From an uncultured Gammaproteobacteria bacterium (GTDB lineage Bacteria; Patescibacteriota; Patescibacteriia; Magasanikbacterales; UBA922), in contig CAYFPM010000003.1 in assembly GCA_964345045.1 (NCBI GenBank), positions 134,038-198,037 of the forward strand: a stretch of DNA of 64,000 nt, in the 5' to 3' direction. Within the stretch, counting starts at the first letter, position 1. Every line of letters starts with the position of its first letter. The notes beneath the pieces were generated by a model. That model had not been told where the DNA came from, searched no databases, and saw nothing but the letters and a program-made list of their open reading frames with translations. Made by a program: the position numbers and the translations under genes. Below are positions 11,991-58,359 of the stretch, one piece after another.

Positions 11991-12387
11991 GGGGATGACA
12001 GGGTTCGATAGACGGACCAAGGTACCTATAAGTGCATGTCGAGGAGGTGAGCTTTCCTCGTAAATACCGGCTCACACTTGATACGTGCAAACGCTATCAG
12101 CCGAATGAAGACTAGCTTGGCTCGCGCCTTTGCTATGCCAGCATTCGCACCTGTTGCCGCTTAATTGCCGCAACCATCGCACCCACGATACTCGATAGTG
12201 GTTCTGCGGTGTTAACTTATCGAGTGTAGGTGTATATACACCTGCCATTATGCACCGAAGTTCTCTGCAGGTAACCAATTACCATTTTTGACACTTTTTT
12301 GTTGGTAGTTGGTATCCTAAAGTGTCTAAACATGTAGATCTTCTAGCTACCCCGCTCTACACCCGGGTTCAAATCCCGGCATCTCCA
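11991..12387 (+). ncRNA. ssrA: tmRNA (ssrA), tag reading frame ANAISRMKTSLARAFAMPAFAPVAA*
   Basis: 5' end GGGGAUGACAGGGUUCGAUAGACGG pairs with the 3' acceptor CAUCUCC, followed by discriminator A. The tRNA-like T-arm is GGGUUCAAAUCCCGG. The resume codon GCA at 12087 lies ~97 nt from the 5' end, and the frame ends ..VAA then TAA at 12162..12164. Position directly after smpB fits. CCA is not encoded. Confidence 0.85.
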
Positions 12388-12462
12388 CGAAAAATGGCGC
12401 AGCCATTCAACAAAACCCAGCACGAAAGTGGTGGTTTTTTGATAAAAAATAAAGTCAAACAA

Positions 12463-27968: not shown

Positions 27969-30900
27969 CTAAGAACAAAGATTATTTACACAACTAAGCC
28001 CGGTCTGACAAGCAGCATCTACACTACAAGCTCCTCCGCTAGCCACACTATTTGGAACTACACAAGACGATTGTCCTGACACAGTATTCCAAACACCACC
28101 GGCTACTGATTCACAATCGGATTGGTTAACACAGCCCACCAAATTTCCAGCTCTACAATCTGGAGTACAACTTTGACTTAGCGGCGGTTGAACAGCACTG
28201 GCATTGGCACAGCTAGTATTTATAAGTGTACAAACTCTACTGCGAGTACCAGAAACCGGACAACTTGTGGGGAAAGGTTGGCAATTCCAATCGGCGGCAG
28301 TACAAGCAACAACTGTATTGGGGCTGGTAGAACCTTGCGAAGTTGAACCAATAAGTTGGGAGAGAACTTCATTAAAACCACTTTTGATTTGTTCTACTGG
28401 AGTTATGGTATAACCACTATTGGTAGCACTTAAATTAAAGACTTGCCAATAACGAGCCAAAGAATTGGAGCTAGTTCCTGCAGCAGTAGTTATGTTAAAG
28501 TTTCTGGTAGGTTTGTATATAGACAATCCCGGATTTTGACCAACTCTAGATTCGTATATTTCTACTTGCAAATTACTATTTTCAAAATTAATTATTGGAA
28601 CAGAACTGATTTGACCTATACTTTCTACAAAAAAAGCATACGGTCTAGCATCAACCAACTCGGCAGTATCTATAGTAAAGGTTTGAGAAAAGGTTTTTTG
28701 TAAATTATTTCTACTATGAACCCAAACAGCTCCGTTCCCACCATTTGTCAAAGATGGACTACAACCAGACGGTACCCAATAACCAGCCGTATCTTGAGCT
28801 ATTCTACTACAAATCCCATTAGGGATTATACTTGTAGCAAAACCATAAGTAATTGGTTGTCGACGATTTGGGTTTGGATCATTAGAAAAACTTTCGTTGT
28901 AAAGAGCTCCTCCAAAGGTAACTCCTTCGTTATTTTCAGCTTCTGTCCAACGAACTACTACTCTTATGGTTCCTGGCGCTACAGCCGGAGAAACCAAAAT
29001 TTCGTGACCAACTGTTTGGCTATCACTGTTTACCGGATAGTTATAAACACTACCTTGCACTGTTTGGGTAACCGAATTATTAAACTCTACTCCATAAGTA
29101 CCACTACAAAGAGCATTTGATTCTAATCCTCCATCTACAATATTACCAGTGTTCAAAAATCTTTTTTGCGTAGTGTAAGATTGAGTAGATTGACCAGAGT
29201 ATAATTGCAAATTCATTTCTCCTCTGGCTACATAAAAACCAGCTTCTCTTACACGCAAATAAGCGTTAGTTGCCGTGGCCCAAGCTGTAGCATTAATAGC
29301 AGCTCCATCTTCTATCACATTTAAGATTGCCAAACTAGGAGCTACCCCACCTTGGCTAATATTTTTGCTACCACAAGGAATACAATTATCAATATAAGTA
29401 GTACAAGAATTTTGGCAAGCTCTTTGGCCAACATTTACTGTGAAAAAATTAGTTGGTTGATTGTAATTGCTACCAGTACACTGGGTTCTAACGTATCTTT
29501 GGGCATCTGGCTTGGTCACATCTGGATCAATCAAGATAAATCCGCCATCTACTTCACAGGCTTCGTAGACAGGTTGCCCAGCGGAATCAGTTGTAATAAT
29601 CTCTAATTCTCTATTCCCACAATATCCGGCAGCATCTACTGTAAGGACAGCATCACAACTATTGGAACAATATGTACAAGATTCATTATAACTTGGTATA
29701 CAAGCTACCCCATTTTGACTACCCAAATCACAAGCTTCTCCCGGATCAGTTACTCCATTGCCACAACCAACGCTTTGGCTAATAATGGCACTACTTTGGG
29801 CAGCAGCGCGAACCAAACATAAATTGCTACAAGCATCATTATTTATATTGTTTCCATCATCACATTCTTCGAACTGTGGTTGAACTACTCCGTCTCCACA
29901 GTATCCACCTGGTCCCTGACAATCAAAAGCACAAGAATTTTGTTGATCTATATGGTAGGTTGGGGTGTCCCCCGCCAAACAAGTATTATTAGCCCCACAA
30001 TCAGAATCTACCGCACACAAACGTAAACCTGTTTTCAAAATTGTACCTTGTGAACCAACTGTCCAAGCCCCTACACCACTAGCATGCAAATCATTAAGGG
30101 TAATAGTGGAACCAACATTGGTATTGGCTCTTACCCAAGACAATCCTCCATCTGTAGTTTTTAAAATATTGTTATTGACGTCAATTATATAACCATCAAA
30201 ATTATCTACAAAATACACTTTTTGTAAATTTGTATTAACTGGGGATTGTTGGATTTGCCAACTAGTTCCTCCATCTTTGGTAGACAAAATTATACCGCTA
30301 TCCCCCACGGCCCAACCATCTTGACTGTCTACAAAATAAACGCCTCGCATCAAATGGCTATTGCCAGGTTGCCCTGGGCTGTAATACTGATAAGAAAGGT
30401 TCCAAGTGTTTCCAGAATCTGTAGTTCTGTAAATAAAACCAGCCGCATTGTAAGTTTGGTTATTGTTGTCTGTAGTAGACCCACCAGAAGCTGCCCAACC
30501 TTCGGTAGCACTTACAAAATGAATTGAATTAAAATTATTTGGTAAAGCATTGCCTTGTGTCCAATTTCTTCCACCATCAATCGTTCTAAAAATTCTATTA
30601 CCAGAAGCCGACACCCAACCATTATTTCTATCAACAAAATTCATATCGAAATAAATATTTGGCAAAGTAAACGTACCACTACCCAAACGAGGGAAGGTGG
30701 TATTGCTTTGAACCCAAGTAGAACCACCGTCTATAGTTCTCCATACCAAATTATTATTGGAATCCAACAACCAACCGGTATTCACATCAACAAATTTGAT
30801 ACTGTTTACATTATGAGTATTGGCTATGGTTGGTAAATTTTGAGTTTGCCAAGTAACCCCACCGTCGTTGGTACGCAACAATGTACTATTGTTACCACCA

Positions 30901-33900
30901 GCCCAACCGTTTTGTTCATCTACAAAGTGTACCGCCGACAAAGCTTGGTTGGTGCCAGAAGTTTGTACTCCAAAACCATCCCTTTCTACACTACAAAAAC
31001 CTTTGGCATTGATCCCTTGGAAATTGGCAATTTCACAATATTCCACAGCTCTACCACCCACAATATCCGGTGAGCCACCATTACCACAATATTGTGGATG
31101 AGGGCCTCTACAATCCGATGCACAGTTGCCATAAGTACCATTTCTGGCTCCATCATCACACTGCTCGGTAGCAGGATCTACCCTACCGTCACCACAAACT
31201 CCACCAGCCTGGCAACTACCATACTGCAGTTGACATTGAGAATCACAAACTGCTTGAGCTACTTGTTGAGCCGGACAAGCTCCTATGACCGGATTTTGGA
31301 TTGTCCCCCCAACACATTGGGCTTTGGAAATATCTTTAAAAGCTTTGGCTTGGAACAGAGGAGCACATGTAAAATCAAGTTTGCTAGCAGGGTTTCTAGG
31401 AACTTTTGCTACATTGGTGCCACTATTTAAGCCTGGATGAAAAGTTGAATAATTTGCTCTACCAGTAGCAATTTGATTTACCAAAATATTTACACAATCA
31501 GCAGAAGTGTTACAACTAACAGCTGGCAAAACGGCTGGTGGTGTATTTGATTGGCTAGAGTCCGGATACATAACAGCATTAAGATACTGACATACTGTTT
31601 GGCCAGAACCCATTTCTACAGAAACATCTGGATTGAAAAGAGGCCGACCAGAAACTATAGAACCACTCGAACCTGGCACTGGATTTTCAAACAAACTAAT
31701 TGAACAATCTACATCTGTGTTACAAATTTGTGATTGATTGGTCCCTTGATAAGCACAAACTCCGGCAGTGGCCACCCCAGTAATACCTGTAGTTCCCAAT
31801 TGAGTTCGACCAGGAGGATCACACTGTTCAGTAGCTGGGTTGAGCACACCATCTCCACAAACAGCACTAAATGGACTTTGTACTTGGAATGGCGCCGAAC
31901 AAACTCTATTGGTACTAAAACTATTTGGATCAATAAATTCTTGGACTATATTACTTTGACTAGTAAAGTATTCTAGTTGAGCATGTACTGTATAATTTTG
32001 ATTTGAAACAGCAGAATATTCAAAAATATTAGAATCTCTTGGACAAACAAAACTAGAAGATTGTTCATCCCAACAAGTTTGATTATCTATTAGAGAACAG
32101 GTATTGCCTGCACCTGGGCAATCGGCATCACTACCACAACCTTGTGGGACAGTTTGGCTACAGACACCAAGAGCAGTACAAGTATTGCCTACCCCAGGAC
32201 AATCTAGATTAGATACACAGCTAGTAGAGATACCCTGCGCACAAACACCACAACTACTCCACTTGTTAACTGGATCTGTTTTGAGTCCTCCAACTTGACT
32301 CCCTAGTAGACCCCAAGAAGGCCATTTGGAAGTAGAATAACCCGGAATATAACTACCCGAACTCAAAGTTGGAACATTTATATTGCCAGAAGCATCTCTT
32401 AGAGAACTTAATTTTTGCTGAGCTTCTCTTATACTATGCAATCTTTCCCAGTCTCTTATGAATTTGGTTTTTGAAGATGAACAAATTCCATTGGTATTTG
32501 GAAGTGGAGTACCATCTACGTCTTTACAGTCAAAATTATCTGCACACTGCACGCTGGAAATAGGCAAAGCCCCTGTTTCGCCCACCCTAGTGGTAGCGGC
32601 AGAAACAGTATTTGCCAAACAATACCCAACATCACTAATATTGATATTGAATTCCAAACCATTTAACAATTGATCAAAAACTTCTCGGGTACTTTCGCTA
32701 GCATTTTGATTTATACTAAACAAATAAACATTGTTAAATATGCCTCCACCAGAACTTTGATTTAGAGCATTAACATAGTAATTGTCACCATCGGTGATAG
32801 CTTCGTAACCTGCAATTCTTACATCTCTAAAATCACTTGGGACAAAGCCTAACTCCGGTTGTTTTTCGTACCATTGTCTAACACTATCTCTACCTGTATT
32901 TTGGAAAATTTGAATACCAACTACGTCTTCATTAGTATCGTTAAAAAATAACATTTGTTTAAGCAATCCGGTTCTTTGTATCTGGCTGGTAGAAGCTAGG
33001 GCCCCCTGACAAGTATTGAGCTGGCCACTACAATCTGTATCGGCAAAACAACTAGTGTTGGTTCTAGAACAAGTTCCGGCAGTCACCAAATTACCAAATA
33101 CAAATGGTTTCAAATAAGGAAGGTCGTCGCTAGTATCTCCAGAAGCTCCGGCATCGGCACAATAGCTGGTTCCAAAATTAAAGTACTGTCCGTTTACTCC
33201 ACCAGTTCCAGCAGCTACATTGGCAGCAGGCAAAGCCGTTCCATCGAAAACTCCGGCAGCGTCCACACCATCATTATTAACATTAGCTCCAAAAGGAACC
33301 CCTTCTTCAAATGGAAAATATGCTACCGGTGGCCAAGGTCTTTCACAAAACAAAGCGGTTAGATCTGTTTTGCCAGAAAAAACTTCTCCCGCTTGATTGG
33401 TTTGTGTATCCGAATCAAAAGTAACCGTGGCATTGGCAGAAGCAGTTCTAGAACCTTCTAAATTATTAGAAGCAATTTTGATAATTGAAGTGTCGGTTGG
33501 AGATAAGCTTGGAGTACAAGCACTAACATCGTACTGACAAGTAGTTACATTACAACTAAGATTGCCTCCTGTGTAATTTCTACCAGGGATAGCACTACAT
33601 TGTGTGGCTCTAAGCAAAGGTCCATCACAATCTTCGCCAACATCGAGCACCCCATTGCCACAAGTGGCCGGAGGCACTGTACTTGGGATAGAAAAAATTT
33701 GGTCACCCTGTGGTTGCCAATCCCAAGACCATTCATATTGGCCTGGTATAGATACAATACTTTGATCATTGGTACTAACTGCATTAGCTACAAACACAGT
33801 ACTGGTGTTTGGGGCAGAGAAAATATATTTATTTGGCAAAATTCCAACTGAATTTAATTTACAAATATCTGTACCTGTTCTAAACAAAATACTATCATCT

Positions 33901-36900
33901 AATCTTGTTACATTTGAATCTGGAGAACCAATCCCCACTCCTCTTAAGTCCTTGATACCAGAAACTCCGCCTCTTAGAACTACAGCATAACTAGTATTTT
34001 CTTCGAGTACACTATTTATAGACAAAATCCCATCTGTCCCTACTACATTGCCAACTGTATCATAAGCCGGAGTAGCATTGGTTTCAAAAGTGACATCGCC
34101 GGCACACCACACAACTACGTTTGGATCATTGGTTCCAGAAGCATGGACTACTCCAAACCATAATCTAGCAAAAAAAGTTTTAATACCTTGCCATAATTTG
34201 TGCCACAAACTTTTTGGAGCCAAATCTGTAGCAATATCATTTAGAGCCAAAGTTCTATTAACCAAATTAGTTACATCAAATTCTCCAGCTGGACAGTTAC
34301 CTTGATTTTGTCCAGCAGTAGTTTTGTCTGCCAAAGCTTGTACCTCTCCAGATCTTATAACTCTTTTTTCAATCGTAACTTCATCCAAAAGACCATTATA
34401 TAAAGAAGTATAATTAACAGCTCCTGCACTAGAGACATTTACATTCGCTCCAATATTTAATGAATAGGTTGCAGAATTGGCGACTCCGTTTATCGGATTA
34501 TTATTGTAAGCAGCGATATTGGTAGAATCTTCTAACAAACCATCTATATACAATCTCATTTCACCGTCTCTATCCAAAGACAAGGCCACATGATGCCATC
34601 TATCATCGGCCAAATTAGAATTGGCAGTAACAGTAGCACACGCCGGAGTTTGACCATTTTGACAAATTTGACCATTTGGAACTCCATTTTGTAAATCAAG
34701 TACCCACCTGTTTGTAGAATAACCTTGAGAAGCTATAGTCTCGATCTGAGCAGTGCTGCTTGTTTTGATCCAACCATGAACTGTAAAGTCGGCAGTAGCA
34801 AAATCATAGGCCGGGACAACGCTATTTGGGGTAGCCGTATCTGGCAAACTTTGTAATCTATCCACCAAGCCATCAAAATAATAAGCACTGCTTACAATTC
34901 CTGTATCCGTGGTTACACCACCTACGTCACTCAAATTGTTTATATAAGCGTTATCTGCATTGCTGCTATTGCCTACATTTTGACTTTGGGTATAACCTTT
35001 GGCCAAAAATAAATTTCTATTTAATGTATCTTCGTCAAGAACAGTATCGAAGGTAATACTAATTGCAGTGTTTCTACACACGGGAGCAGCCAAGGCTGGT
35101 GTAGCCGCATTGGCAAATCCTTGACCATCGGCTGGGTAAGAAGAACTTCTGGTAGGCCTGTTGTAACAACAAGAATTAGTGCCTACACCATCGGTAGCAT
35201 TTGGACAATCATTAAATCTAAAAGTATTAACTCCTGAAACGTTTACCGTTCTTGGTTCGGCAAACTCGGTAAATCCACATTGCAAAGCATAATTACCCGT
35301 GCCTGTTATCTGATCGGCAAGAGGCAAAGTAATTACCGATTGACTGGTCGCATCCAAAGTTGCAATAGCAGTGGCATCAACAGTAGTTTCTTGATTACCA
35401 GTTTGTGGATTGGTGTTTCCTTGACCAATGGCTTCTACTACTTGGATTGGATTTTGACCCAAAGATTGCAAGTTGGCAATCTCTACAGCAGTGTATTCAC
35501 ACCAACTTGTTTCTCCCAAACCAACAACGCCATCACCACAAACAGAGGCTGTAGAATATCTAGAAACAGAAGATCCAGACAAAGTACAATCAACATTACA
35601 ATCTTCGTCTGTAATATCGTTACAACGCAAACGACCGGCTCCAACATCTGGTACATCGGTATTACAAATATTTTGCAATAAACATCTGTTGCTACAAGAG
35701 CTTATAGGAGCATTTGTTACAATTCCCCTACCAGGCTGAGTCGGATCGTATACAACGACAACATTAGATCCTCCACTAGAGACCACTTCACACTCTTCGC
35801 CAAATTCTATCAACCCATTACCACATACACTAGAAGCATCGGTACATTCTAGGCTGGCTCCGGCAGTAAGGTTGCCAATATTCAAACTGGCATTGACCGG
35901 ATCATCACACCAAGCTTGAGACAGTTGACTACCCAAATGTACACAAGAGTTAGAACAATATTCACTAGACTCGGCACCAGCACCACTAATTTCACAATCT
36001 TCACCAGCTTCTAGTAACCCATCTCCCCCACAAAAGGTTCCTGGGACCCCTGCAAAAGTATCGAAAGATGGAGTACCTTGATTGGTACAAGTAGCTGAAC
36101 AATTTTGCGCATTTGGAGCGGCAGGATCACATTCTTCTCCAAAAAGAGGTTCTACAATCCCATTGCCACATTGATTGGCGCCTGTCCCTACCGTGCCATT
36201 ACCCGGACGCAAACAGCTTAGATTACAACTAATCCCTGGTATTTCTGCTGTATTTGTACCTGGCACATTAGCGGCCACATCACAATCTTCGCCAGCTTCC
36301 ACTACACCATTACCACAAATAGAGCTTGGATTACTTTGGTGAGTAGCACTATCTATATCCGAACCTCCCGGCAAACAACCGTTGGTACAATTATTTTTTG
36401 GCAAAGCTGCTGTAGAAAAATTAGATACAGTGGCTATATTGGTATCGGCCACATTCCATTGCCATCCAAAACTCCAAGGATTTAGATCTTGTCCTTCTAC
36501 ATTACAACTATCTGGATTGGTTCTTGGTATTACGGTGTATTTAGTTTTTTGACCAATTACCAAAGCTGTAAAAGGATCTGGAGAAATTCTGGCATTGTCT
36601 GCCACACAAATTTCTCCAGTGGCTTTGGTTTTGAAAATCCAATTGGTAGGAGTAAGGGATGGCCCAAACGAAGTAATACCTCCGGCAGCATTTACACTAG
36701 CTACCGACAAAATTGCACCGGTTAATTCTGCATAGTACCAAGTATCGGGTTGCAAAACTGCTCCTGCCGTCGGACGGGCGTGCAGTTCTTTTCGGTTGGA
36801 TAATTGTTGGTCAACTGTAAACGGCACTCGATTATTTCTGTTTACCGTATTCGAAGTACAATTGGCGCGATCTGTACAAGTATAAACATTGAGACCATTT

Positions 36901-39900
36901 TGATAACGTCTGTCATCCATGTCTCGATTGAACTTGGCTCCCAAGGTAGCATTGGCACAAGCTTCGCTACAGTTTGGCCAAAATTCTATAGCTCTTGGGG
37001 TACCAAGATCTACAGTCAAATCGCTTACCACAGTTCCAATGTTGCTATTTTGTAATTGAGAACGACTTTCTTTTTCCAAAGTAAACGCAGTCAATCTACC
37101 ATCTAGATAATAATTATCTGGAACTCCAACAGGATTGGCGGAAAGCATACCAATCAAAATATCTCCACCAATATTTCTTACTGTAGTTGCCCCGGCATTA
37201 CCTTCTCCCACCATATAAAGTGGAGAGTTTTGAGTAACATTTCTCCACCACATACGCCAGTTAGTTCCGTTTTGGGTTATTTGAATTTCAAACTCATCAA
37301 AAAATTCTGTATCCGGAATATACCAAACCAATGGATTATTAGCATCTTGAGCAATATGATAATTACTAGAAGGTGTAGTATTGTTGTAACCTCTCTGTAT
37401 ACTTTGCCCAGTGTTTACATCGAGTGAGCTTGGGATTACCCAATTACCATTACCAATATTGGTTGGCAAAGCTTGAGACCAATTTTGGATTCTAGAGGTA
37501 ATAACAGTCATGGAAAAATTAGGCGTATCATTTTTGAAAAATCTAAAATCTCGACGACGTTGGTTTTGGCCTCTGTTACCAAAAGTTTGCAACCTTACAC
37601 TGTAGTCGCCTTTGGCTGCCACCATTTTTACTTTTTGAGCACTAGCGGCTCCGGCACCAAATTGCCAACCGTTGGCAACACTAACAGGATCATCATTATT
37701 CAAAACCATTCTAATAGTCATGGTGGCACTATTGGTGTAATCAAAAGTATAGATATTACTTGGATCTGGAATAACAATAGGATTGCCACCTACAGGTACA
37801 TCTAATGGAACCCCAGCCAAAGCCGCAAAATCAGACACCGTAGAATTACCAGTCCCAGCAGTAACTCCACCCGGTAAGCTAGCTTCTATTTGCACACTTT
37901 GAGGGGCAGTGGATCTAAATGCTCTGGCAGTAGCTCTAGAATCTCTATAACCATTGCCTGGAGCAATACTAACAGTAACTGCACTAGCAAGTGGATTGGT
38001 AGCTGCAGCTACACGCCAATTCCAACCCAAACCATCTACGTTAAGCACAGCACAAGTTTGGTCTCCTCTACCCCATAGTTTGTAATAAAGTGGTTGATTA
38101 TCTGAAACCGGATAAGCCGGATCAAGCACAGTTCCCAATCTATCGGTAACATGCGCTGGGGGTTCTATACCAGCTCCGGTTAGGGCACACATATTATTTG
38201 GCCCACCGGTTTTAAATTCAAAACAATAAGCTGTTCCAGAACCACAATTTCTAGTTGCTTGTAATGGTTGATTGACAATTCGACTACTACCAAATTCTGT
38301 TATCACTTCTTGAGATTGAATAGAGGATCCTAGTTCAACTCGGTACCAAGTATCTGGTTGCAAATTATTAGTGTTGTTTAATGGAGCTGGTCTAATAGTC
38401 AAAACTCGGCTGGTGTAATTTAGATTAACTTGATTGCTAATATCTATTTTGTTTCCTCCTGAACAATCGATTCTTCCATTGGAAGCTTCGGCACAAGTAA
38501 ACAAAGAAACATTGCCTGCAAAAGAATTTGGATCCATGTCCATATTAAACATAACGGCTATGTCTCTGTTTAGACAAACATCATCTCCTTGTTGCCAACC
38601 ATCCCATGGAGTTGGAGATGGAAAAGCTACGGCTCTGTTGCCAATCCATCTTTCTTGATTACAAGCTTCTAACACCAGTGGAACACTAGCTATACGGCCA
38701 GTAGTAAACCGCCATACATAACCACCATCACGAACTTCTCCTGGACAACTAAAGCTCGCTGGACGAAATACTCCGGCCGAAGGTCCTTCGGTACAACATC
38801 TTTGACCAGCTGGGATTTGGTTGGAAGGGATATCTCTACAGTCGGTCACTGTATATTCTACAGAATTACTAACTTGTAAATTATTTCCCGAACCTGCGGT
38901 TACTACAATTGGACCAGTTTGCATAGAATAACCATTTTGAACTGGAATTGGGGTAGTCACCGTATCGCCGGCTGTCAAAGAGTTGGCTACTGTAATTTGG
39001 TTACCACTGGTAGATAACCAAGTATTTAATTCTGTATTGGTAAGAGGATTGGCTGTAAGACTATTTCTGCCCCAAAAACGAACAGTGGGACTATTGGAAA
39101 AATTAACTCCAGTAATAGTAAGGGGGTTCACACCACCAACCGGCAAAAGCGGAGCCGGACCACTGTTTGGATTAACTGCACAGATACTAGGCAATGGAGC
39201 GCCATTGTTTACGTTTATAACACTTGTAGCGTTTGGCACACTTTGGATATTGGTATCGCCACTTTCAACAATTACATTATAACCACCAATTGCTAAATTG
39301 GCCGGTAATTCCATAATAATTTGGGTATCTTGCCAAGCTAAAGAACCACAGACTGTTGGCAAATTGGCAACAGTACAACCAGCCCCCGGACAAGTGGTAG
39401 TTCCTTGTGCCAAATAAATTGTTCCCGGAGATTGACCAAATCGACTACCGGTAATAGTAACAAAACTACCCGGAGTAGAAGAGCTAGGATTAATTGCTTC
39501 GATCACCGGAGTTTGATTTTGTAAAGTTGTTAATATTTGAAATGGAATGCCATTGCTATCTTCTCCGCTGGCAGAAGTAACAATCACGCCTACTCTACCG
39601 GGTTGTATATTGGCAGGGATAGTAGCGTCTATTTGGGTAGCCGACCAACTGGAAACCTGAGATTGTACTCCCCCAAAATTCAATTGTGCTCCACTAGCAG
39701 GGCCAAAAGATTTTCCAATAGCGGTAACATTGGTGCCAGCTATAGCGGCAGTAGCTCCGACCGGAGTAGTTTGACCAGGAGAAACTCTTACACTACACAA
39801 ACTTGGACGAACCAGACTATTGTCTTTTCTAAAAAATCCTTGTCTTGGCCCAGATCTAGAACCACGACCATCGGCAGTAGTGTCTGACAAATTGCCTCCA

Positions 39901-41546
39901 CCGGCTCTTGTAACTCTAATTACACTGTCACTATTATTTGGCAAAGCAGCGTCGTTTGGTGGGACTTCTACTATTATCCAACTATCTGTCCAAACATCTT
40001 CGGTTCCACATTGAGCCAAACTAGCCGGTACCCACTGATCCGGAGATCCATCGGTATCAGTATCTATTCCAAATTCTACAGTACCATTGGCGTCACCAAA
40101 AAATTGACCAAGAATTGTAACCCAGTTGCCACCAGCGCCATCCCAAAGATTTACATCGGTAATAAGTGGGACAGCTGCACATTGGCCAGTAGTTTGCCCT
40201 GGTGGAATTACACATCTACCAGAAGCACAATCAGCATTTTGAGTACAGCCAGCATTTTGTCTACATCCAGGATTTGTACCAAAACCAGTACCAAACTGAC
40301 AAGATTGATCTACGACAGTAAATTGAAAAGTTTGGCTGCTAAGATTACCATCTATATCGTAAACTTCTAACAAACCATCGTAAGTAACATTGGTAGCAGC
40401 ATTGGCTGCTAAAACTAGTTGATAATTATAAGTATAAGGATTGGAGGCAGTTGCTGCAGAGCCATTTGAAATAAGTGGGGCATCGTAATTTTCTATTACA
40501 GTTCCCCCACCTTGTGGAGTTAATCTAACATGAGCATACCCAATACCATTGTCGTCCGACAAATCTGCCCCGATTAAATATGTTTGCCCCCTTGGCAAAG
40601 CTGGAGCGCCACCATACTGAACTCCATTGTATGTAACAGTATTGTTTGGGATAGTCGGAACCACCGAATCCATTACTACATTAGTGTTTACTTGGAAGGT
40701 AGTAGCTGTTGGGAAATTGCCACATTGGGTAGTAGTTTGCAAAGAATTTCCTCCAGCCGATTGCAGATTTGGTTGTACGCTAATGCTGTAATTACCGGCA
40801 GACAAAGTAGCATTGATAGGCGCAGCTTCTAGCACTGTTCTAGCTGTATCTAAATATGCAAAATTAAATTCACTATTAACATTGGCTCCATCACGCAAAA
40901 TAGTTAGAACACTATCTGCAGCTGTAGCAGCCGACACAGATTGACTAAAAATTGCCCGGACTGAAAAATTATTTATGTCCACAGTTCCATTGTTTGGCGC
41001 GCTTGGAGTAATCGTTCTTACTACGAATTGTTGGCTACTATTGCCAGTACACGGGTTGAATCCTCCACCAGGCCCTCCTCCGGCTCCACACTGAGTAGGA
41101 TTGGCAGCCGCATAAGCAGGGTCACTACAATTGGCCACTACCCCCGTACCTGTAGCTGCTCCCAACTGAGTCAGTACAAATTGAGTTATAGCAAAAGCAG
41201 ATAAGATTATGACCAAACCAATACTGCCATTTATCATTATTTTCTTGGCTTGAGAAACTTTTTCTTCGTTACCTCCGGCGGTCATATATGTATAGCCCCC
41301 GTAAATCATGATTACCAAAGCAATAATCCCTAGTAATCCAAGAGCTACTCGAATAATTCTGGCAATCGTTACTCGGATATCTTGGCCTCCTAGACCTGTA
41401 CTTTGACTAACTCTACCCAAACCAAAAACATTGTTGGTCTGTGTTTGAGCCAAAACATCATTGGCAAAAAGAAAACCTAGACCAACAAAAAAGGTTAGCC
41501 CCAAAAAGATAAATATTTTTTTTAATTTTATACTTTTGTTTATCAT
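27969..41546 (-). CDS. Giant (4,525 aa) multidomain surface protein: N-terminal T4SS-pilin-like (VirB2/TrbC-topology) membrane module, Ig-like regions, LamG/ConA-like lectin domain, Cys-rich CG(N/D)G..GE(E/D)CD repeats, six-blade BNR/Asp-box propeller, Cys-rich C-terminus
   Basis: Single uninterrupted ORF. N-term: signal/anchor + helix(ALGLLGIIALVIMIYGGYTYM)-TAGGNEEK-helix(GSIGLVIILSAFAITQFVL). LamG-like ..RWHHVALSLDRDGEMRLYIDGLL.. (~34,350..34,900). Cys-rich repeats such as CGNGVVEAGEDCD, CGNGLIEFGEECE, CGDGRVDPATEQCDDGARNG, YCGDGVVQPQFEECDDGNN (~29,700..36,400). Asp-box repeats TNDGGVTW, TIDGGSTW, TIDGGRNW, TTDSGNTW, TKDGGTSW, TTDGGLSW (~30,250..30,880). Confidence 0.85.
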   Translation of the reverse strand: MINKSIKLKKIFIFLGLTFFVGLGFLFANDVLAQTQTNNVFGLGRVSQSTGLGGQDIRVTIARIIRVALGLLGIIALVIMIYGGYTYMTAGGNEEKVSQAKKIMINGSIGLVIILSAFAITQFVLTQLGAATGTGVVANCSDPAYAAANPTQCGAGGGPGGGFNPCTGNSSQQFVVRTITPSAPNNGTVDINNFSVRAIFSQSVSAATAADSVLTILRDGANVNSEFNFAYLDTARTVLEAAPINATLSAGNYSISVQPNLQSAGGNSLQTTTQCGNFPTATTFQVNTNVVMDSVVPTIPNNTVTYNGVQYGGAPALPRGQTYLIGADLSDDNGIGYAHVRLTPQGGGTVIENYDAPLISNGSAATASNPYTYNYQLVLAANAATNVTYDGLLEVYDIDGNLSSQTFQFTVVDQSCQFGTGFGTNPGCRQNAGCTQNADCASGRCVIPPGQTTGQCAAVPLITDVNLWDGAGGNWVTILGQFFGDANGTVEFGIDTDTDGSPDQWVPASLAQCGTEDVWTDSWIIVEVPPNDAALPNNSDSVIRVTRAGGGNLSDTTADGRGSRSGPRQGFFRKDNSLVRPSLCSVRVSPGQTTPVGATAAIAGTNVTAIGKSFGPASGAQLNFGGVQSQVSSWSATQIDATIPANIQPGRVGVIVTSASGEDSNGIPFQILTTLQNQTPVIEAINPSSSTPGSFVTITGSRFGQSPGTIYLAQGTTTCPGAGCTVANLPTVCGSLAWQDTQIIMELPANLAIGGYNVIVESGDTNIQSVPNATSVINVNNGAPLPSICAVNPNSGPAPLLPVGGVNPLTITGVNFSNSPTVRFWGRNSLTANPLTNTELNTWLSTSGNQITVANSLTAGDTVTTPIPVQNGYSMQTGPIVVTAGSGNNLQVSNSVEYTVTDCRDIPSNQIPAGQRCCTEGPSAGVFRPASFSCPGEVRDGGYVWRFTTGRIASVPLVLEACNQERWIGNRAVAFPSPTPWDGWQQGDDVCLNRDIAVMFNMDMDPNSFAGNVSLFTCAEASNGRIDCSGGNKIDISNQVNLNYTSRVLTIRPAPLNNTNNLQPDTWYRVELGSSIQSQEVITEFGSSRIVNQPLQATRNCGSGTAYCFEFKTGGPNNMCALTGAGIEPPAHVTDRLGTVLDPAYPVSDNQPLYYKLWGRGDQTCAVLNVDGLGWNWRVAAATNPLASAVTVSIAPGNGYRDSRATARAFRSTAPQSVQIEASLPGGVTAGTGNSTVSDFAALAGVPLDVPVGGNPIVIPDPSNIYTFDYTNSATMTIRMVLNNDDPVSVANGWQFGAGAASAQKVKMVAAKGDYSVRLQTFGNRGQNQRRRDFRFFKNDTPNFSMTVITSRIQNWSQALPTNIGNGNWVIPSSLDVNTGQSIQRGYNNTTPSSNYHIAQDANNPLVWYIPDTEFFDEFEIQITQNGTNWRMWWRNVTQNSPLYMVGEGNAGATTVRNIGGDILIGMLSANPVGVPDNYYLDGRLTAFTLEKESRSQLQNSNIGTVVSDLTVDLGTPRAIEFWPNCSEACANATLGAKFNRDMDDRRYQNGLNVYTCTDRANCTSNTVNRNNRVPFTVDQQLSNRKELHARPTAGAVLQPDTWYYAELTGAILSVASVNAAGGITSFGPSLTPTNWIFKTKATGEICVADNARISPDPFTALVIGQKTKYTVIPRTNPDSCNVEGQDLNPWSFGWQWNVADTNIATVSNFSTAALPKNNCTNGCLPGGSDIDSATHQSNPSSICGNGVVEAGEDCDVAANVPGTNTAEIPGISCNLSCLRPGNGTVGTGANQCGNGIVEPLFGEECDPAAPNAQNCSATCTNQGTPSFDTFAGVPGTFCGGDGLLEAGEDCEISGAGAESSEYCSNSCVHLGSQLSQAWCDDPVNASLNIGNLTAGASLECTDASSVCGNGLIEFGEECEVVSSGGSNVVVVYDPTQPGRGIVTNAPISSCSNRCLLQNICNTDVPDVGAGRLRCNDITDEDCNVDCTLSGSSVSRYSTASVCGDGVVGLGETSWCEYTAVEIANLQSLGQNPIQVVEAIGQGNTNPQTGNQETTVDATAIATLDATSQSVITLPLADQITGTGNYALQCGFTEFAEPRTVNVSGVNTFRFNDCPNATDGVGTNSCCYNRPTRSSSYPADGQGFANAATPALAAPVCRNTAISITFDTVLDEDTLNRNLFLAKGYTQSQNVGNSSNADNAYINNLSDVGGVTTDTGIVSSAYYFDGLVDRLQSLPDTATPNSVVPAYDFATADFTVHGWIKTSSTAQIETIASQGYSTNRWVLDLQNGVPNGQICQNGQTPACATVTANSNLADDRWHHVALSLDRDGEMRLYIDGLLEDSTNIAAYNNNPINGVANSATYSLNIGANVNVSSAGAVNYTSLYNGLLDEVTIEKRVIRSGEVQALADKTTAGQNQGNCPAGEFDVTNLVNRTLALNDIATDLAPKSLWHKLWQGIKTFFARLWFGVVHASGTNDPNVVVWCAGDVTFETNATPAYDTVGNVVGTDGILSINSVLEENTSYAVVLRGGVSGIKDLRGVGIGSPDSNVTRLDDSILFRTGTDICKLNSVGILPNKYIFSAPNTSTVFVANAVSTNDQSIVSIPGQYEWSWDWQPQGDQIFSIPSTVPPATCGNGVLDVGEDCDGPLLRATQCSAIPGRNYTGGNLSCNVTTCQYDVSACTPSLSPTDTSIIKIASNNLEGSRTASANATVTFDSDTQTNQAGEVFSGKTDLTALFCERPWPPVAYFPFEEGVPFGANVNNDGVDAAGVFDGTALPAANVAAGTGGVNGQYFNFGTSYCADAGASGDTSDDLPYLKPFVFGNLVTAGTCSRTNTSCFADTDCSGQLNTCQGALASTSQIQRTGLLKQMLFFNDTNEDVVGIQIFQNTGRDSVRQWYEKQPELGFVPSDFRDVRIAGYEAITDGDNYYVNALNQSSGGGIFNNVYLFSINQNASESTREVFDQLLNGLEFNINISDVGYCLANTVSAATTRVGETGALPISSVQCADNFDCKDVDGTPLPNTNGICSSSKTKFIRDWERLHSIREAQQKLSSLRDASGNINVPTLSSGSYIPGYSTSKWPSWGLLGSQVGGLKTDPVNKWSSCGVCAQGISTSCVSNLDCPGVGNTCTALGVCSQTVPQGCGSDADCPGAGNTCSLIDNQTCWDEQSSSFVCPRDSNIFEYSAVSNQNYTVHAQLEYFTSQSNIVQEFIDPNSFSTNRVCSAPFQVQSPFSAVCGDGVLNPATEQCDPPGRTQLGTTGITGVATAGVCAYQGTNQSQICNTDVDCSISLFENPVPGSSGSIVSGRPLFNPDVSVEMGSGQTVCQYLNAVMYPDSSQSNTPPAVLPAVSCNTSADCVNILVNQIATGRANYSTFHPGLNSGTNVAKVPRNPASKLDFTCAPLFQAKAFKDISKAQCVGGTIQNPVIGACPAQQVAQAVCDSQCQLQYGSCQAGGVCGDGRVDPATEQCDDGARNGTYGNCASDCRGPHPQYCGNGGSPDIVGGRAVEYCEIANFQGINAKGFCSVERDGFGVQTSGTNQALSAVHFVDEQNGWAGGNNSTLLRTNDGGVTWQTQNLPTIANTHNVNSIKFVDVNTGWLLDSNNNLVWRTIDGGSTWVQSNTTFPRLGSGTFTLPNIYFDMNFVDRNNGWVSASGNRIFRTIDGGRNWTQGNALPNNFNSIHFVSATEGWAASGGSTTDNNNQTYNAAGFIYRTTDSGNTWNLSYQYYSPGQPGNSHLMRGVYFVDSQDGWAVGDSGIILSTKDGGTSWQIQQSPVNTNLQKVYFVDNFDGYIIDVNNNILKTTDGGLSWVRANTNVGSTITLNDLHASGVGAWTVGSQGTILKTGLRLCAVDSDCGANNTCLAGDTPTYHIDQQNSCAFDCQGPGGYCGDGVVQPQFEECDDGNNINNDACSNLCLVRAAAQSSAIISQSVGCGNGVTDPGEACDLGSQNGVACIPSYNESCTYCSNSCDAVLTVDAAGYCGNRELEIITTDSAGQPVYEACEVDGGFILIDPDVTKPDAQRYVRTQCTGSNYNQPTNFFTVNVGQRACQNSCTTYIDNCIPCGSKNISQGGVAPSLAILNVIEDGAAINATAWATATNAYLRVREAGFYVARGEMNLQLYSGQSTQSYTTQKRFLNTGNIVDGGLESNALCSGTYGVEFNNSVTQTVQGSVYNYPVNSDSQTVGHEILVSPAVAPGTIRVVVRWTEAENNEGVTFGGALYNESFSNDPNPNRRQPITYGFATSIIPNGICSRIAQDTAGYWVPSGCSPSLTNGGNGAVWVHSRNNLQKTFSQTFTIDTAELVDARPYAFFVESIGQISSVPIINFENSNLQVEIYESRVGQNPGLSIYKPTRNFNITTAAGTSSNSLARYWQVFNLSATNSGYTITPVEQIKSGFNEVLSQLIGSTSQGSTSPNTVVACTAADWNCQPFPTSCPVSGTRSRVCTLINTSCANASAVQPPLSQSCTPDCRAGNLVGCVNQSDCESVAGGVWNTVSGQSSCVVPNSVASGGACSVDAACQTGLSCVNNLCS

Positions 41547-55344: not shown

Positions 55345-55701
55345 ATGGAGGGAAGAAAATTTGATTTAGAAGAAAGAACTTTGGAGTTCTCCAAAAGGAT
55401 TATTTCAATGACAAACGCATTGCTTAGCAATGACACTAACAGAATACTAAAAAATCAATGTGTTAGGTCGGCTACTTCTGTAGGTGCAAATTATAGAGAA
55501 GCAAATGACGCACTGGGAGATAAGGACTTTTTACATAGGATTGGTATATCTAGAAAAGAAGCCAAAGAGACTACTTATTGGATTGATCTAATTATAGAAA
55601 ATAATATTTCAATGAAAGAAAGAATTTTGCCCTTGAGACAAGAAAGTGTAGAATTAACCAAAATATTATCTACTATATTAAAGAATAAGAAGAAAAAATA
55701 A
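55345..55701 (+). CDS. Four-helix-bundle protein of the 23S rRNA intervening-sequence protein family
   Basis: 118 aa. ..SATSVGANYREANDA..GDKDFLHRIGISRKEAKETTYWIDL.. matches the helix-2 NIAEG-like / helix-3 pattern of PF05635/TIGR02436 proteins. Confidence 0.65.
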   Translation: MEGRKFDLEERTLEFSKRIISMTNALLSNDTNRILKNQCVRSATSVGANYREANDALGDKDFLHRIGISRKEAKETTYWIDLIIENNISMKERILPLRQESVELTKILSTILKNKKKK

Positions 55702-55741
55702 TTTGTATCTTGTTTCTTTGTTATTTGAATTTAAAAAATAA

Positions 55742-55775
55742 AGACCCGGCCAAAAGGCCGGGCTTTAATTTTTAT
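55742..55775 (+). terminator. Intrinsic terminator (GACCCGGCC-AAAA-GGCCGGGC + T-run)
   Basis: GC-rich 8-bp stem followed by TTTAATTTTTATTT, directly after the four-helix-bundle gene. Confidence 0.65.
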
Positions 55776-55779
55776 TTGA

Positions 55780-56300
55780 GGGGTTGCCCCCAAAATACTG
55801 CACCCAAGAAGGTGTGTCGTAGGAGAAGACGAGCCTAAGCCTGTACTACCCTATAACACACCCCCATGCTTGTCGTGGGCACAGAAGGAAATTTATTTCT
55901 TCAAGTGTTAAATTCTTCTTGAGAATAAACTTTCTTCTATGCCTTTATCCGTCAGAATCTCTTATAACTAAGAAATTCAGTTCGGAAGGGGAGTGAGTGG
56001 CTTGCAGTTGTCGTGGGCTATTATCGTAGAGCCCAGACTTGACAGCGCCAAAAGCGCCGGTCCTGCATTAAGAGATGGGTATTCGGCCCCAGTCTCAAGC
56101 CACTCACTCCCCTGTTCAAGTGAAAGCACCTAGGTGTCTCCACTCGGGTAACGCTTACGCATTCCCTAACTCCCTTCTTTATCCACACATTGAAAAACAG
56201 TTGTCTCTTGCCCAGGTGGGCTAGTCTGTCAATCGATCATGGTTTGCCGAGTCAGGCAAGCTTGTTTTAGCAACTCGCTTGCTGAGCCGACCCCACAGAA
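55780..56300. ncRNA. Unassigned structured noncoding region (candidate ncRNA), strand unknown
   Basis: ~520 nt with no ORF, elevated GC, and bracketed by terminators on both sides. It contains an 18-bp perfect stem (AGGGGAGTGAGTGGCTTG 55988..56005 pairing with CAAGCCACTCACTCCCCT 56097..56114). Nested hairpins lie inside it (TGGGCT..AGCCCA, GCGC-CAAAA-GCGC). TTGTCGTGGGC is repeated at ~55872 and ~56012. Confidence 0.35.
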
Positions 56301-56304
56301 TACC

Positions 56305-56330
56305 ACAAAAAAGACCCTGTGTCAAGGGTC
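56305..56330 (-). terminator. Intrinsic terminator after the VanW-family gene (GACCCT-TGACAC-AGGGTC + TTTTTT on the minus strand)
   Basis: Hairpin at 56313..56330 with a T-run on the minus strand at 56305..56312, 30 nt beyond the stop at 56362. Confidence 0.6.
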
Positions 56331-56361
56331 TATTGTGGAAAGGTTTATTTTTTGGCTAATT

Positions 56362-58359
56362 TTAGGTATTTTCTTCTGCTTCTGGAATAGCAATACTCCC
56401 ATCGGGATTGAAGATATTTTGCTCTTCTGGAGCACAACTAGTACTGCCATCTGGTAATTCTTGGCATTTGTTGAGCTCTGCTACCCCTACCAAACAAATT
56501 TCTGGCAGTGGCCGGTAGTAACTTTCAAAAACTTGCTCTTCTTTGGTGCCATCTGGTAATTCTCGTACATAGGTAAAAGCGGCTTCGGCTCCAGTATAGG
56601 CGTGTTGGCACTCTCTTTCTCCAGGAGCTAGTTTGGTGGTCTCTATAATCTTGGTCTCTCCATGCGGAATCCAACGTTTTACAATTGGTTTTTCATAATA
56701 ACCTTCTCTACCATCACTAGTCCCCCACAAAATAAAATTGAGTCGACTATTTGCCAAATCCATTTCTGTTTGGATCAAAATATAATTATCTGTATCATTT
56801 TTAAACTTAAAATCCGGAGCCGGTTCGTAAATAGTAGCATCAGTTCCTGGCAAACCATTTTGCAAATCATTGTAATAACCCACTACCAAAGAATGATTCC
56901 TGCGCTGGGTAATTGGCAAGCCACTATTCATAGCCATACGAAACAGAGTAGTTCCAATTTGGCACAGCCCTCCACCAATCTCTGGTTTTATTTCATCTCC
57001 TTTTATTACCAATTCTGGCAAATAACCCCCTTCTAGAGTATATGGCTGAGTATGTTCTATGGTAGAAAATTCTTCTCCCGGCTTTACCAAAATTCCATTC
57101 AATTTGTTAACTGCGTTTCTAATATTTTTTATTCTATTCGATGGACTACCAGAAAAATCCGATACCCCGATTCCCAAAATTTCGGTAATTCCCAAATCAT
57201 TGGCCTCGCCAGTGCTGACACTAGGTTCTACCAAATCTACTACAACAGTAATATTTTTGCCCACACCTTCGTTGTGACTAGCTCTTTGGTAGATTACCTC
57301 ATTTATTAATTTGGAAGTTTCTTCTATATTTAATTTTATACCTGGTCTTGATCCTTGAAATTCTTTGACCTCTTTATTTTGTTCTATTTCAAACTTGGCA
57401 TCTCGGGCTTCTCTATCTATTTTATTTCCTACTACAGAATTAAGATAAATCTCCAAATCATCGTGGTCAAAACCAAAAGCATATTCGCCTTCTGTTTTCT
57501 CTTGGACTTCCAACCAATCTTTGAAAATATTTTTTTTCAAAACCCAACTTTCAGAAAAACCGGTCTGAGGATCTTTGTAAGACAAATTTATAGAACCCAA
57601 AGCAAAAATCTTTGGTAAGCTTTTCAAAACTTGATCCAAATTTTTTGAATCTACTTTTGGATTGGTTGTTTTTTGTTCTATCTCCACTACAGCTGGTTGC
57701 AAGATAGACCAACTATTTCTTATCTCCGACAAAGCTTCTTCGTAAGCAAATTCCAATCCAGGGGTAGAACTAACTAGATTGTATTCCAAAGGATCTGTGC
57801 TAATAATATCCACCCCAGCATCCACTGCCGGAGTTTCGTACTCTCCAAATTTGTCTGCCAATTCTTGTTTCAAGGCTTCTTCATTTATATATACGTTTTG
57901 CAATACCAAGTCTTTGTCTTGTAAAAAAACACCTGAAAAGATATTAAATCCTGTGATTATTGGATTTTTACTTTTGCCTAGTGTGATTAATCTATCAACT
58001 TCTTTTTCTATGTCCAAACTAGCAAATTCTACAACAGTACCTTCTGTAGCTACCACCGGATATATGAGGATATCTTGTTTTTTTCCATTATAAGCAAAAT
58101 TAAATTGCAAACCTTCGTTAGTCAATTTTTCACTCATGTCTTGCAAAAATCTGGTCAACTCTTCTTTTTCCATTCCCCCAATCGACAAACTTCCAATATA
58201 TATGCCCGGATTAACTTTTTCCTTGTAACTAGAAGCATAGAAAAAAGAACCACCAAATACCAACAAAAATAATACTGCCGTAAAAATGGCAAAAAATCCA
58301 AAAAACTTCCAATCTCTATTGGACTTTTTTACTCTTTCTTTTATAAAATTTTCATCCAT
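56362..58359 (-). CDS. VanW-family protein (membrane-anchored, with N-terminal accessory domains)
   Basis: N-terminal TM (FFGFFAIFTAVLFLLVFGGSFFY). C-terminal VanW-like core ..GGGLCQIGTTLFRMAMNSGLPITQRRNHS... 665 aa. Confidence 0.72.
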   Translation of the reverse strand: MDENFIKERVKKSNRDWKFFGFFAIFTAVLFLLVFGGSFFYASSYKEKVNPGIYIGSLSIGGMEKEELTRFLQDMSEKLTNEGLQFNFAYNGKKQDILIYPVVATEGTVVEFASLDIEKEVDRLITLGKSKNPIITGFNIFSGVFLQDKDLVLQNVYINEEALKQELADKFGEYETPAVDAGVDIISTDPLEYNLVSSTPGLEFAYEEALSEIRNSWSILQPAVVEIEQKTTNPKVDSKNLDQVLKSLPKIFALGSINLSYKDPQTGFSESWVLKKNIFKDWLEVQEKTEGEYAFGFDHDDLEIYLNSVVGNKIDREARDAKFEIEQNKEVKEFQGSRPGIKLNIEETSKLINEVIYQRASHNEGVGKNITVVVDLVEPSVSTGEANDLGITEILGIGVSDFSGSPSNRIKNIRNAVNKLNGILVKPGEEFSTIEHTQPYTLEGGYLPELVIKGDEIKPEIGGGLCQIGTTLFRMAMNSGLPITQRRNHSLVVGYYNDLQNGLPGTDATIYEPAPDFKFKNDTDNYILIQTEMDLANSRLNFILWGTSDGREGYYEKPIVKRWIPHGETKIIETTKLAPGERECQHAYTGAEAAFTYVRELPDGTKEEQVFESYYRPLPEICLVGVAELNKCQELPDGSTSCAPEEQNIFNPDGSIAIPEAEENT

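Follow-up and report, generated by a model that had tools for sequence, protein, structure and literature searches.

A structurally conserved RNA module beside VanW genes of Patescibacteria and in phage contigs: a putative new RNA family

In bacteria, the 4.5S RNA of the signal recognition particle (SRP) as well as 6S RNA are stand-alone hairpin RNAs that present an internal loop to a protein or a molecular machine. Irregular hairpins with asymmetric loops also head phage operons or lie between their genes, as in the RNase III sites of T7, HK022 put, and lambda nut. Patescibacteria, or the candidate phyla radiation (CPR), account for a large share of bacterial diversity and have minimal genomes; to our knowledge, almost nothing is known of CPR non-coding RNAs (ncRNAs) beyond rRNA, tRNA, tmRNA, and RNase P RNA. 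The subject here is the interval 55780-56300 of a 64,000-nucleotide (nt) stretch, called the window, from an uncultured bacterium assigned to the Magasanikbacterales (assembly GCA_964345045.1, contig CAYFPM010000003.1, positions 134,038 to 198,037). An initial annotation, made from the letters alone, had marked this interval as a candidate ncRNA. The interval is predicted to be transcribed from the minus strand as part of an RNA of ~555 nt, which runs from ~56291 to a terminator at 55763..55744 and whose 3' part holds a conserved 93-nt module.

The conserved module and its predicted transcript

The module emerged from a comparison with 80 loci encoding VanW homologues (28-51% identity), which were fetched from GTDB species representatives. 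With the minus-strand region as the query, nhmmer gave matches in more than 45 of the 80 loci, all confined to query positions 414-546. The matches are usually no farther than a few hundred nt from the VanW stop and lie on either strand. A covariance model, R1, was built here, and two alignments, A1 and A2, hold 51 and 41 sequences. R1 places the module at 55795..55887 of the minus strand (93 nt, 92.4 bits, E = 1.6e-22), with covariation, as the one strong match in the 64-kb window; the next best reaches 16 bits. The initial annotation had proposed a comparative alignment as a check, and this alignment returned covariation and conservation in relatives for 55795..55887 only.

Several measures describe the pairing. 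RNAalifold predicts one long hairpin, with compensatory changes in 29 of 37 pairs. In the 28-pair structure, 93.5% of alignment cells pair, compared with 72% in shuffled alignments and 39-50% when partners are slid by 1-3 columns, and changes on both sides of the pair occur at 21 of the 28 positions. The observed covariation score of the module was reached by none of 500 shuffles. The strand is fixed by three G.U pairs, which are nearly invariant and would be A.C on the opposite one. Judged by these alignments, the module is a new structurally conserved RNA family that is not in Rfam 15, and we are highly confident that the locus is a real RNA gene with such a module.

The module folds into a long irregular hairpin. 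At its core, an internal loop is asymmetric, with CGACAAGCAU (55875-55866) facing one lone U (55807), and this loop is invariant in all aligned sequences. C-G and A-U pairs flank the loop on one side, and a G-C pair followed by tandem G.U pairs flanks it on the other. In the R1 structure, helix P2 (9 bp, 55884-55876 with 55806-55798) precedes the loop, and helix P3 (~11 bp, 55865-55855 with 55818-55808), which opens with G-C, G.U, and G.U/A-U, follows it. Within the module, P3 is accompanied by P4 (AGG/CCU) and by the P5 hairpin, which has invariant GG/CUC and a UNCG-like tetraloop. A small hairpin, P6 (GGGGGCAACCCC, 55780..55791, minus strand), is followed by an A-rich linker at 55764-55779; in relatives, a hairpin of differing sequence occupies the same place. 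The family signature GCCCACGACAA runs from the end of the P2 5' strand halfway into the invariant loop. The repeated motif reported initially, TTGTCGTGGGC, is the reverse complement of this signature and is indeed present twice, at 55870-55880 and 56008-56018. The second signature (56008..56018, minus strand) lies upstream of the module, inside the 5' domain, where R1 run with filters off found no second full copy of the module. A faint and weak likeness to boxA is seen in the 3' strand of the module, UUCUUGG.

The signals around the module would place it in a transcript of its own. The VanW gene (58359..56362) ends in an intrinsic terminator hairpin at 56312..56331, AGACCCTTGACACAGGGTCT followed by TTTTTTGTGG, predicted for the minus strand only. 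A sigma-70-type promoter at 56297..56325 of the minus strand (TTGACA at 56325-56320, a 17-nt spacer, and TGgTATTCT, with the -10 at 56302-56297) matches 10 of 12 consensus positions and has the TG of an extended -10. Its -35 box sits in the loop of the VanW terminator hairpin, and the U-tract of that terminator continues into the extended -10 (TTTTGTGGTATTCT, 56297-56337). The overlap of terminator and promoter recurs in relatives, and the terminator arms CCACAA...TTGTGG are kept in relatives and in the phage contig L093. For the looser pattern TTGACA-N15-19-TATNNT, the window has 12 occurrences, compared with 1.05 expected. Transcription probably starts near 56291. Downstream, an intrinsic terminator at 55735..55763 (hairpin 55763..55744, GCCCGGCCUUUUGGCCGGGU then CUUUAUUUUU) would end the RNA; the same hairpin is bidirectional and also ends a plus-strand gene of the 23S rRNA intervening-sequence (IVS) type. 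No minus-strand terminator-like site lies between the promoter and the module, and the sole one before 55763..55744 is a weak 5-bp match at 55814..55801, inside the module. The minus strand is taken as the RNA strand because it folds better, because of the nearly invariant G.U pairs, because of the promoter and terminators, and because U-tails follow the hairpin in other lineages.

The interval also has the general properties that the initial annotation had listed. It contains no open reading frame (ORF) of 60 aa or more, the longest being 55, 50, 49, and 46 aa; a 72-aa ORF (56239..56457, plus strand) starts within it and ends beyond it, overlapping the end of the VanW gene. Its GC content is 0.42-0.515, compared with 0.28-0.34 in the left flank and 0.31-0.45 in the right flank. 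The minimum free energy of the region is -221 kcal/mol on the minus strand (z = -9.3) and -188 kcal/mol on the plus strand (z = -6.3), and none of 100 shuffles folded as well as the native region on either strand. Terminators stand on both flanks (hairpins 55744-55763 and 56331..56312). Elsewhere in the window, and unrelated to the RNA, a 4525-aa ORF occupies 27969-41546 of the minus strand.

How the RNA might work is a separate matter. It would act in trans as a stable RNA, with the invariant loop as the place where a conserved protein or a core machine docks; this reading is favored because invariance of the loop across the phylum fits such a partner rather than a base-pairing seed. Trans action by binding a protein or machine is proposed tentatively, with confidence a little short of even. 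The explanation as a whole, from the minus-strand RNA of ~555 nt with a 3' module of a new family to its mode of action, is given an even chance.

Distribution in hosts and phage contigs

R1 gave 74 matches in 84 Patescibacteria loci, almost always beside an Hsp20-VanW gene pair. The positive loci include Magasanikbacteria, Uhrbacteria, Falkowbacteria, Nomurabacteria, and the Parcubacteria group. The loci of Saccharibacteria, Spechtbacteria, and Paceibacterota gave no R1 match, a search that covered the locus only, so that copies could lie elsewhere in those genomes. The module is typically present once per locus; one locus (L053:1035-1286) has two complete same-strand modules in tandem (73.7 and 71.1 bits). 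In the Parcubacteria and Uhrbacteria types, an outer helix, P1, lengthens the hairpin, which ends in a U-tract and forms a rod of ~135 nt. The order Hsp20-VanW-RNA is kept across distant lineages and is often followed by ClpP, either convergent or co-directional.

The RNA occupies the gap after the 3' end of VanW, in either orientation, with a terminator after it, and is therefore not the leader of a host gene. In hosts, this arrangement speaks against a riboswitch or leader, as a terminator and convergent genes follow the RNA in either orientation relative to VanW; phage copies do precede ORFs. Stand-alone host copies have their own predicted promoter and their own U-tail or terminator. The RNA likely serves a basic cellular process, since its position is kept across classes, its 10-nt loop is invariant, and phages carry copies of it.

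The neighboring plus-strand gene at 55345-55701 had been assigned to the 23S rRNA intervening-sequence family, and this assignment is confirmed (PF05635, 23S_rRNA_IVP, E = 2e-18). The suggested link between this gene and the RNA did not survive: the closest relatives (L086-L088, VanW 53-55% identical) have the order Hsp20-VanW-RNA-ClpP and keep the RNA without a PF05635 gene, and the window has no rRNA. Because of these relatives, the PF05635 gene is regarded not as a partner of the RNA but as an insertion, which seems to have entered between ClpP and the terminator of the RNA. In one lineage, a gene for a NusB-NUDIX fusion adjoins the RNA (L043:8525-9388).

IMG/VR scans followed by R1 showed the module in phage contigs of at least three groups, inside operons or heading them. 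The L093 copy (IMG/VR UViG_3300033066_000406, positions 2510-2601) scores 59.5 bits. A version with 65% GC in L110 (2467-2562), ~350 nt from the contig end, scores 61.3 bits. A 74-nt short form, reduced to P2, P3, the invariant loop between them, and a small cap, is found in L108, L123 (6389-6462), and L124 at 40.3 bits, and L116 (4209-4307) and L135 (1-99) match at 31.3 bits. Two further viral matches were weaker; that in L094 (16 bits) was dismissed as chance, and that in L109 (23 bits) is doubtful.

The settings of these copies differ. The L093 contig encodes a terminase, a ParB-methyltransferase, GroES, and GroEL (region 2290-4640). The terminator-promoter region of its copy resembles that of hosts, and the 5' domain measures ~210 nt; 23 nt beyond the copy begins a small ORF that is followed by GroES-GroEL. 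The L123 copy stands between a divergent replication module (a DnaD-like loader and a DnaB-like helicase) and an operon of structural and terminase genes, and the L116 copy between two co-directional ORFs. Genes for protein quality control are found near the RNA in both settings, Hsp20-VanW/ClpP in hosts and GroES-GroEL in L093.

Phage copies give added weight to cis-acting or processing roles, as well as to the idea that phages recruit or titrate some host factor. The module could be a cis-acting element for processing or stability, for instance a self-cleaving ribozyme of a new kind, or a site of nuclease action or antitermination; the host gene would then make a processed precursor, and the 5' domain would be a leader that is cut off. 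The placement in phage operons suits this view (L093, before an ORF and then GroES-GroEL-...-terminase; L123; L116). So do the invariant nucleotides, which cluster in one internal loop between covarying helices as in small ribozymes, the tandem partial units of one Magasanikbacterium (L012), and an alternative helix, P0, that couples the leader to the module. However, host modules always precede a terminator or U-tail and convergent genes, which leaves no downstream substrate. Single-copy synteny throughout the phylum is also unlike the patchy occurrence of known self-cleaving ribozymes, no match to the hammerhead, twister, pistol, hatchet, or HDV-like models was obtained, and no cleavage site can be predicted. 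A cis-acting role is unlikely, though by no means negligible.

The phage copies also bear on two less probable proposals. In the first, the module is a base-pairing small RNA (sRNA), with the loop CGACAAGCAU (complement AUGCUUGUCG) as the seed for mRNAs, for example around the start codon. The single-stranded invariant 10-mer on a stable scaffold contains the complement of AUG, and in L123, 9 nt complementary to this loop, CUUGUCGUG, lie ~100 nt upstream of the module. However, seeds are seldom invariant across the classes of a phylum, the 64-kb window has no convincing site complementary to the loop (the best have three mismatches and are scattered), and neither a chaperone nor a target is known; a seed function is quite improbable. 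In the second, the conserved element acts as DNA, as a phage attachment site or the hairpin of a single-strand origin. Its presence in phage contigs, in some near the contig end (L110, L135), is in line with this, as is the use of tRNA- and tmRNA-like genes as classic integration sites. The phage copies are nonetheless full-length, and their helices have diverged with compensatory changes, so they are not attachment-site fragments, which would be identical 3' pieces. No integrase was seen beside them, and the invariant G.U pairs, the promoter, and the terminators indicate an RNA. A function at the DNA level is very improbable, and a stable RNA that acts in trans through its loop is retained as the preferred reading.

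The 5' domain and the alternative helix P0

Between the predicted start site and the module lies a 5' domain of ~403 nt, which includes the P0 strand and an AU-rich hairpin. Its main body (55948..56291, minus strand) consists of GC-rich hairpins predicted from single-sequence folds: H1 (56246-56291), H3/H4 (56118-56166), H5 (55987-56113), and H6 (55948-55986). In H5, a perfect stem encloses branched hairpins. This is the long-range stem of the initial annotation, which had given it 18 bp; it has 17 bp (55988-56004 with 56096-56112), the coordinates having been off by one, and lies in 29-nt arms that are 83% complementary. The segment 55900-56292 (393 nt) folds with -150 kcal/mol (z = -7.7), and the 5' domain has a GC content of 0.47, compared with 0.39 for the window. 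The features that had been emphasized at first, namely the long stem, the nested hairpins, and words resembling RNase P RNA, are all in the 5' domain and have no comparative support; what covaries and is conserved is a stretch of 93 nt (55795-55887, minus strand) on the interval's left edge. Within H3/H4, a minus-strand mini-ORF of 10 codons (56132-56164, AUG CGU AAG ... UAG) has AAGGGAG at Shine-Dalgarno distance before its start, and is probably a chance occurrence.

In 18 of 19 loci of the Magasanikbacteria type, the module is preceded, at a distance of 59-783 nt, by a matching promoter (TTGACA-N17-TGnTAnnnT), which overlaps the VanW terminator. The length of the 5' domain is 403 nt in the window, 783 nt in L012, and 275 nt in L089, and 59-226 nt in the remaining loci. 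The first bases of the predicted transcripts are alike among loci (AGUYGUU-like), and the sequences that intervene before the module are unrelated. The other long 5' domains, those of L012 and L089, are likewise enriched in GC. The motif CCACGACAA occurs three times in the window, compared with 0.26 expected, and the two longest 5' domains hold extra copies of CCACGAC on the sense strand only (4, compared with 0.11 expected). In L012 (3680-4070), three tandem units ~110 nt apart share UCUGUAUCCACGAC ... UGGGUAUAGA; the P2 stem and CGAC are common to them, and their interiors differ. About 450 nt of GC-rich structured sequence precedes these units, and the RNA of this Magasanikbacterium would be ~930 nt long; L090-L092 come from the same organism. 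The 5' domains appear to be expansions particular to their lineages, to which duplication of the module contributed at least in part.

Instead, the 400-nt 5' part, which makes up most of the interval, could have no function in the RNA and be a recent addition between promoter and module, an insertion or a palindromic expansion of selfish or neutral kind. A search with nhmmer --max and blastn (word size 7) of the masked window and ~90 loci found no homologue of the 5' domain below E ~0.3, and blastn found no match for it (396 nt) in INPHARED phages or PLSDB plasmids. The corresponding regions of relatives are unrelated and vary from 59 to 783 nt, and the perfect 17-bp stem points to a recent origin. 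The only close sequences are near-identical assemblies of a single project; among five assemblies of the locus, the one difference is a substitution in L004 (56097 A>C), which would break one pair of the stem, and the closest VanW homologue among 5.8 billion proteins is 55% identical. Against a young insertion stand the composition and the fold, since neutral sequence would drift to AT, the GC enrichment of the long 5' domains of L012 and L089, and the sense-strand copy of the family signature within the 5' domain. No transposase, no terminal repeats with a target duplication, and no second copy were found in the window. An inert 5' part is judged unlikely while keeping an appreciable share of the probability.

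The 5' domain may also bear on the fold of the module. The P0 strand (55934..55943, minus strand, GGCAUAGAAG) can pair with 55878-55887, which comprises the flank preceding P2 (3-5 nt across loci) and most of the P2 5' strand; P0 and P2 are mutually exclusive for this reason. The AU-rich hairpin or linker at 55888..55933 forms the loop of P0. Most of the 19 loci of the Magasanikbacteria type have a P0 segment, and its distance upstream of the module is conserved, usually 24-45 nt and at most 76 nt. A MAFFT alignment misplaced three sequences, and a pairing-anchored pseudo-alignment was used instead. In it, the covariation score of P0 is 0.359, compared with 0.204 for shuffled alignments (reached by none of 500), with a clear peak relative to slid registers. 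Covariation extends to flanking positions outside P2, where one position has eight AU and eight GC pairs and the next has five pair types.

These observations suggest that the 5' domain can sequester the P2 5' strand through P0, in which case the canonical fold would require processing of the 5' part or binding of a partner. A functional switch or maturation device formed by P0 and P2 is possible, with the balance tilted slightly against it. The neighboring Hsp20, ClpP, and GroESL genes prompted the idea of an RNA thermometer; the predicted energy gap between P0 and P2 keeps its sign from 10 to 65 C, and a simple thermometer is unlikely. In a broader form, the module could represent a new functional RNA class common to CPR bacteria and phages, either a ribozyme that cleaves itself or acts in processing, or an RNA bound by a core machine such as RNA polymerase or the ribosome. 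Its control in the Magasanikbacteria type would be a two-state P0/P2 switch, fed by large 5' domains that evolve fast and serve as sensors or expansions, such as the 400 nt of the window. We consider this broader form unlikely. The variable 5' expansions and competing helices may offer a natural series on how a small RNA gains regulatory domains.

Several points weigh against a trans-acting RNA of ~555 nt. The phage copies lie in operons or head them, 23-215 nt before the next ORF, a placement more in keeping with action in cis or in processing than with a free RNA that acts in trans. For the 5' domain there is no homologue, its fold is a prediction from one sequence, and its perfect stem looks evolutionarily young. 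The promoter, the start site, and a joint transcript of 5' domain and module are likewise predictions from sequence, and the binding partner is a postulate. The P0 alignment was built by maximizing complementarity and is biased toward pairing. In 12 of 18 loci, the predicted stability of P0 exceeds that of P2 by 4-14 kcal/mol, so that the canonical fold may not be the dominant one in the lineage of the window. Finally, novelty is claimed relative to Rfam 15 and a limited full-text literature search.

Comparison with known RNA families and systems

Rfam 15 covariance models were applied at the gathering score to the window and 12 related loci, and at E<=10 to both strands of 55600-56450 and to a 161-nt representative. 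At the gathering score, the window yields tmRNA and five tRNAs and nothing in the RNA region; the tmRNA (11991-12390, 120 bits) is of the standard one-piece type and unrelated to the RNA. At E<=10, 55600-56450 yields short noise on the terminator only, and the 161-nt representative has no match. None of the 12 related loci has an Rfam match at the position of the RNA, and ARAGORN reports nothing in the RNA region. The cmscan comparison that had been proposed to settle the identity assigned no Rfam family, and the description as an unassigned structured ncRNA stands. A full-text search of the CPR/Patescibacteria literature on ncRNA, SRP, 6S, Rfam, and RNA motifs found no description of the module.

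Among the identities put forward initially, an RNA specific to CPR bacteria is retained, and RNase P, SRP, and 6S RNA are dropped for want of an Rfam match and of their defining motifs. RNase P RNA of type A or B (RF00010/RF00011) has no match at the gathering score or at E<=10. Of the P4 helix sequences expected (GAGGAAAGUCC ... ACAGAA), the 5' strand is absent, as had already been observed. The words resembling RNase P RNA, GGGTAACGC and ACAGAA, do occur; they are on the plus strand and the RNA is on the minus strand. Conservation in relatives extends over 93 nt only, compared with the about 330-400 nt expected of RNase P RNA. Bacterial SRP RNA (RF00169/RF01854) was rejected on the Rfam result and on the apical loop, which is variable (UUAG, UUCG, UCCG, UACG) and not GNRA; a canonical SRP helix-8 pattern had no matches in 1.06 Mb, a test of low power. 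6S RNA was rejected because the internal loop has 10 nt opposite 1 nt and no two-sided bubble, and for lack of an Rfam match. The self-cleaving ribozymes (hammerhead, twister, twister-sister, pistol, hatchet, and HDV-like) have no match at E<=10, and group I and II introns and the known large ornate RNAs have no Rfam support. An rRNA intervening sequence was set aside because there is no rRNA in the window.

A highly diverged housekeeping RNA that Rfam misses in CPR bacteria would still be conceivable, foremost a 6S-like binder of RNA polymerase whose loop mimics the template strand, and with less likelihood an SRP RNA. With its length of ~135 nt, its strong promoter, and its U-tail, the Parcubacteria-type rod resembles these RNAs, and there is one copy per locus. 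The loop would template an RNA starting with AUG..., directed toward the closing stem, much as in the product RNAs of 6S. Neither 6S nor SRP RNA was found in the window and the 12 loci, an observation of low power. However, the loop of 10 nt opposite 1 nt is not the two-sided bubble of 6S RNA, and for SRP RNA the tetraloop is UNCG-like and variable instead of GNRA, and the symmetric AGG/AGCA loop is absent. The 161-nt representative has no 6S, SRP, or RNase P match at E<=10, and the loci of Saccharibacteria, Spechtbacteria, and Paceibacterota lack the module, although it may be present elsewhere in their genomes. A diverged 6S or SRP RNA is improbable. For the favored reading, an RNA that acts in trans as the ligand of a conserved partner, the 93-nt module as bait and its covariance model may provide a concrete handle for finding the role of the RNA.

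Set beside described systems, the module shares features with several and the full definition of none. Like SRP (4.5S) RNA, it is a single hairpin of ~100-135 nt with its own promoter and a conserved internal-loop region, which is strongly asymmetric, with a long 5' strand and one 3' nucleotide. Both are single-copy, SRP RNA counted per genome and the module per locus. Unlike SRP RNA, the module lacks a GNRA tetraloop and an AGG/AGCA loop, and its internal loop lies far from the apex. The loop sequence is unrelated, no Rfam match appears at E<=10, and the module is not seen in some classes of Patescibacteria. With 6S RNA it has in common a rod-like shape, a strong sigma-70 promoter, a central single-stranded stretch between irregular helices, and sometimes a 5' leader. 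It differs from 6S RNA in its one-sided bubble (10/1), in its shorter form of ~135 nt, in a loop that is invariant where 6S bubbles are not, and in having no Rfam match.

Other resemblances concern the mode of evolution and the phage context. As in the titrating RNAs CsrB and RsmZ, tandem hairpin units share one short signature in some lineages (three units in L012, and a second GCCCACGACAA in the window), and evolution by duplication is fast. However, most loci have a single unit, and the signature is not a GGA loop; we know of no general occurrence of CsrA in Patescibacteria. The copies of L093, L123, and L116 recall the T7 RNase III sites, HK022 put, and lambda nut as irregular hairpins with an asymmetric loop that head phage operons or lie between their genes. 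Those elements have no conserved stand-alone chromosomal counterpart and show no similarity in sequence or model, whereas the host copies of the module end in terminators. OLE, raiA, and ROOL/GOLLD RNAs resemble it as GC-rich, ORF-free intergenic signals with strong covariation and an unexplained biochemical role, some of them shared with phages; they differ in sequence, size, and taxa, and the module has a core of only ~93 nt with hypervariable 5' expansions. By analogy, the module would work most like the stand-alone hairpin RNAs that present an internal loop to a protein or machine, 4.5S and 6S RNA, while failing the defining tests of both.

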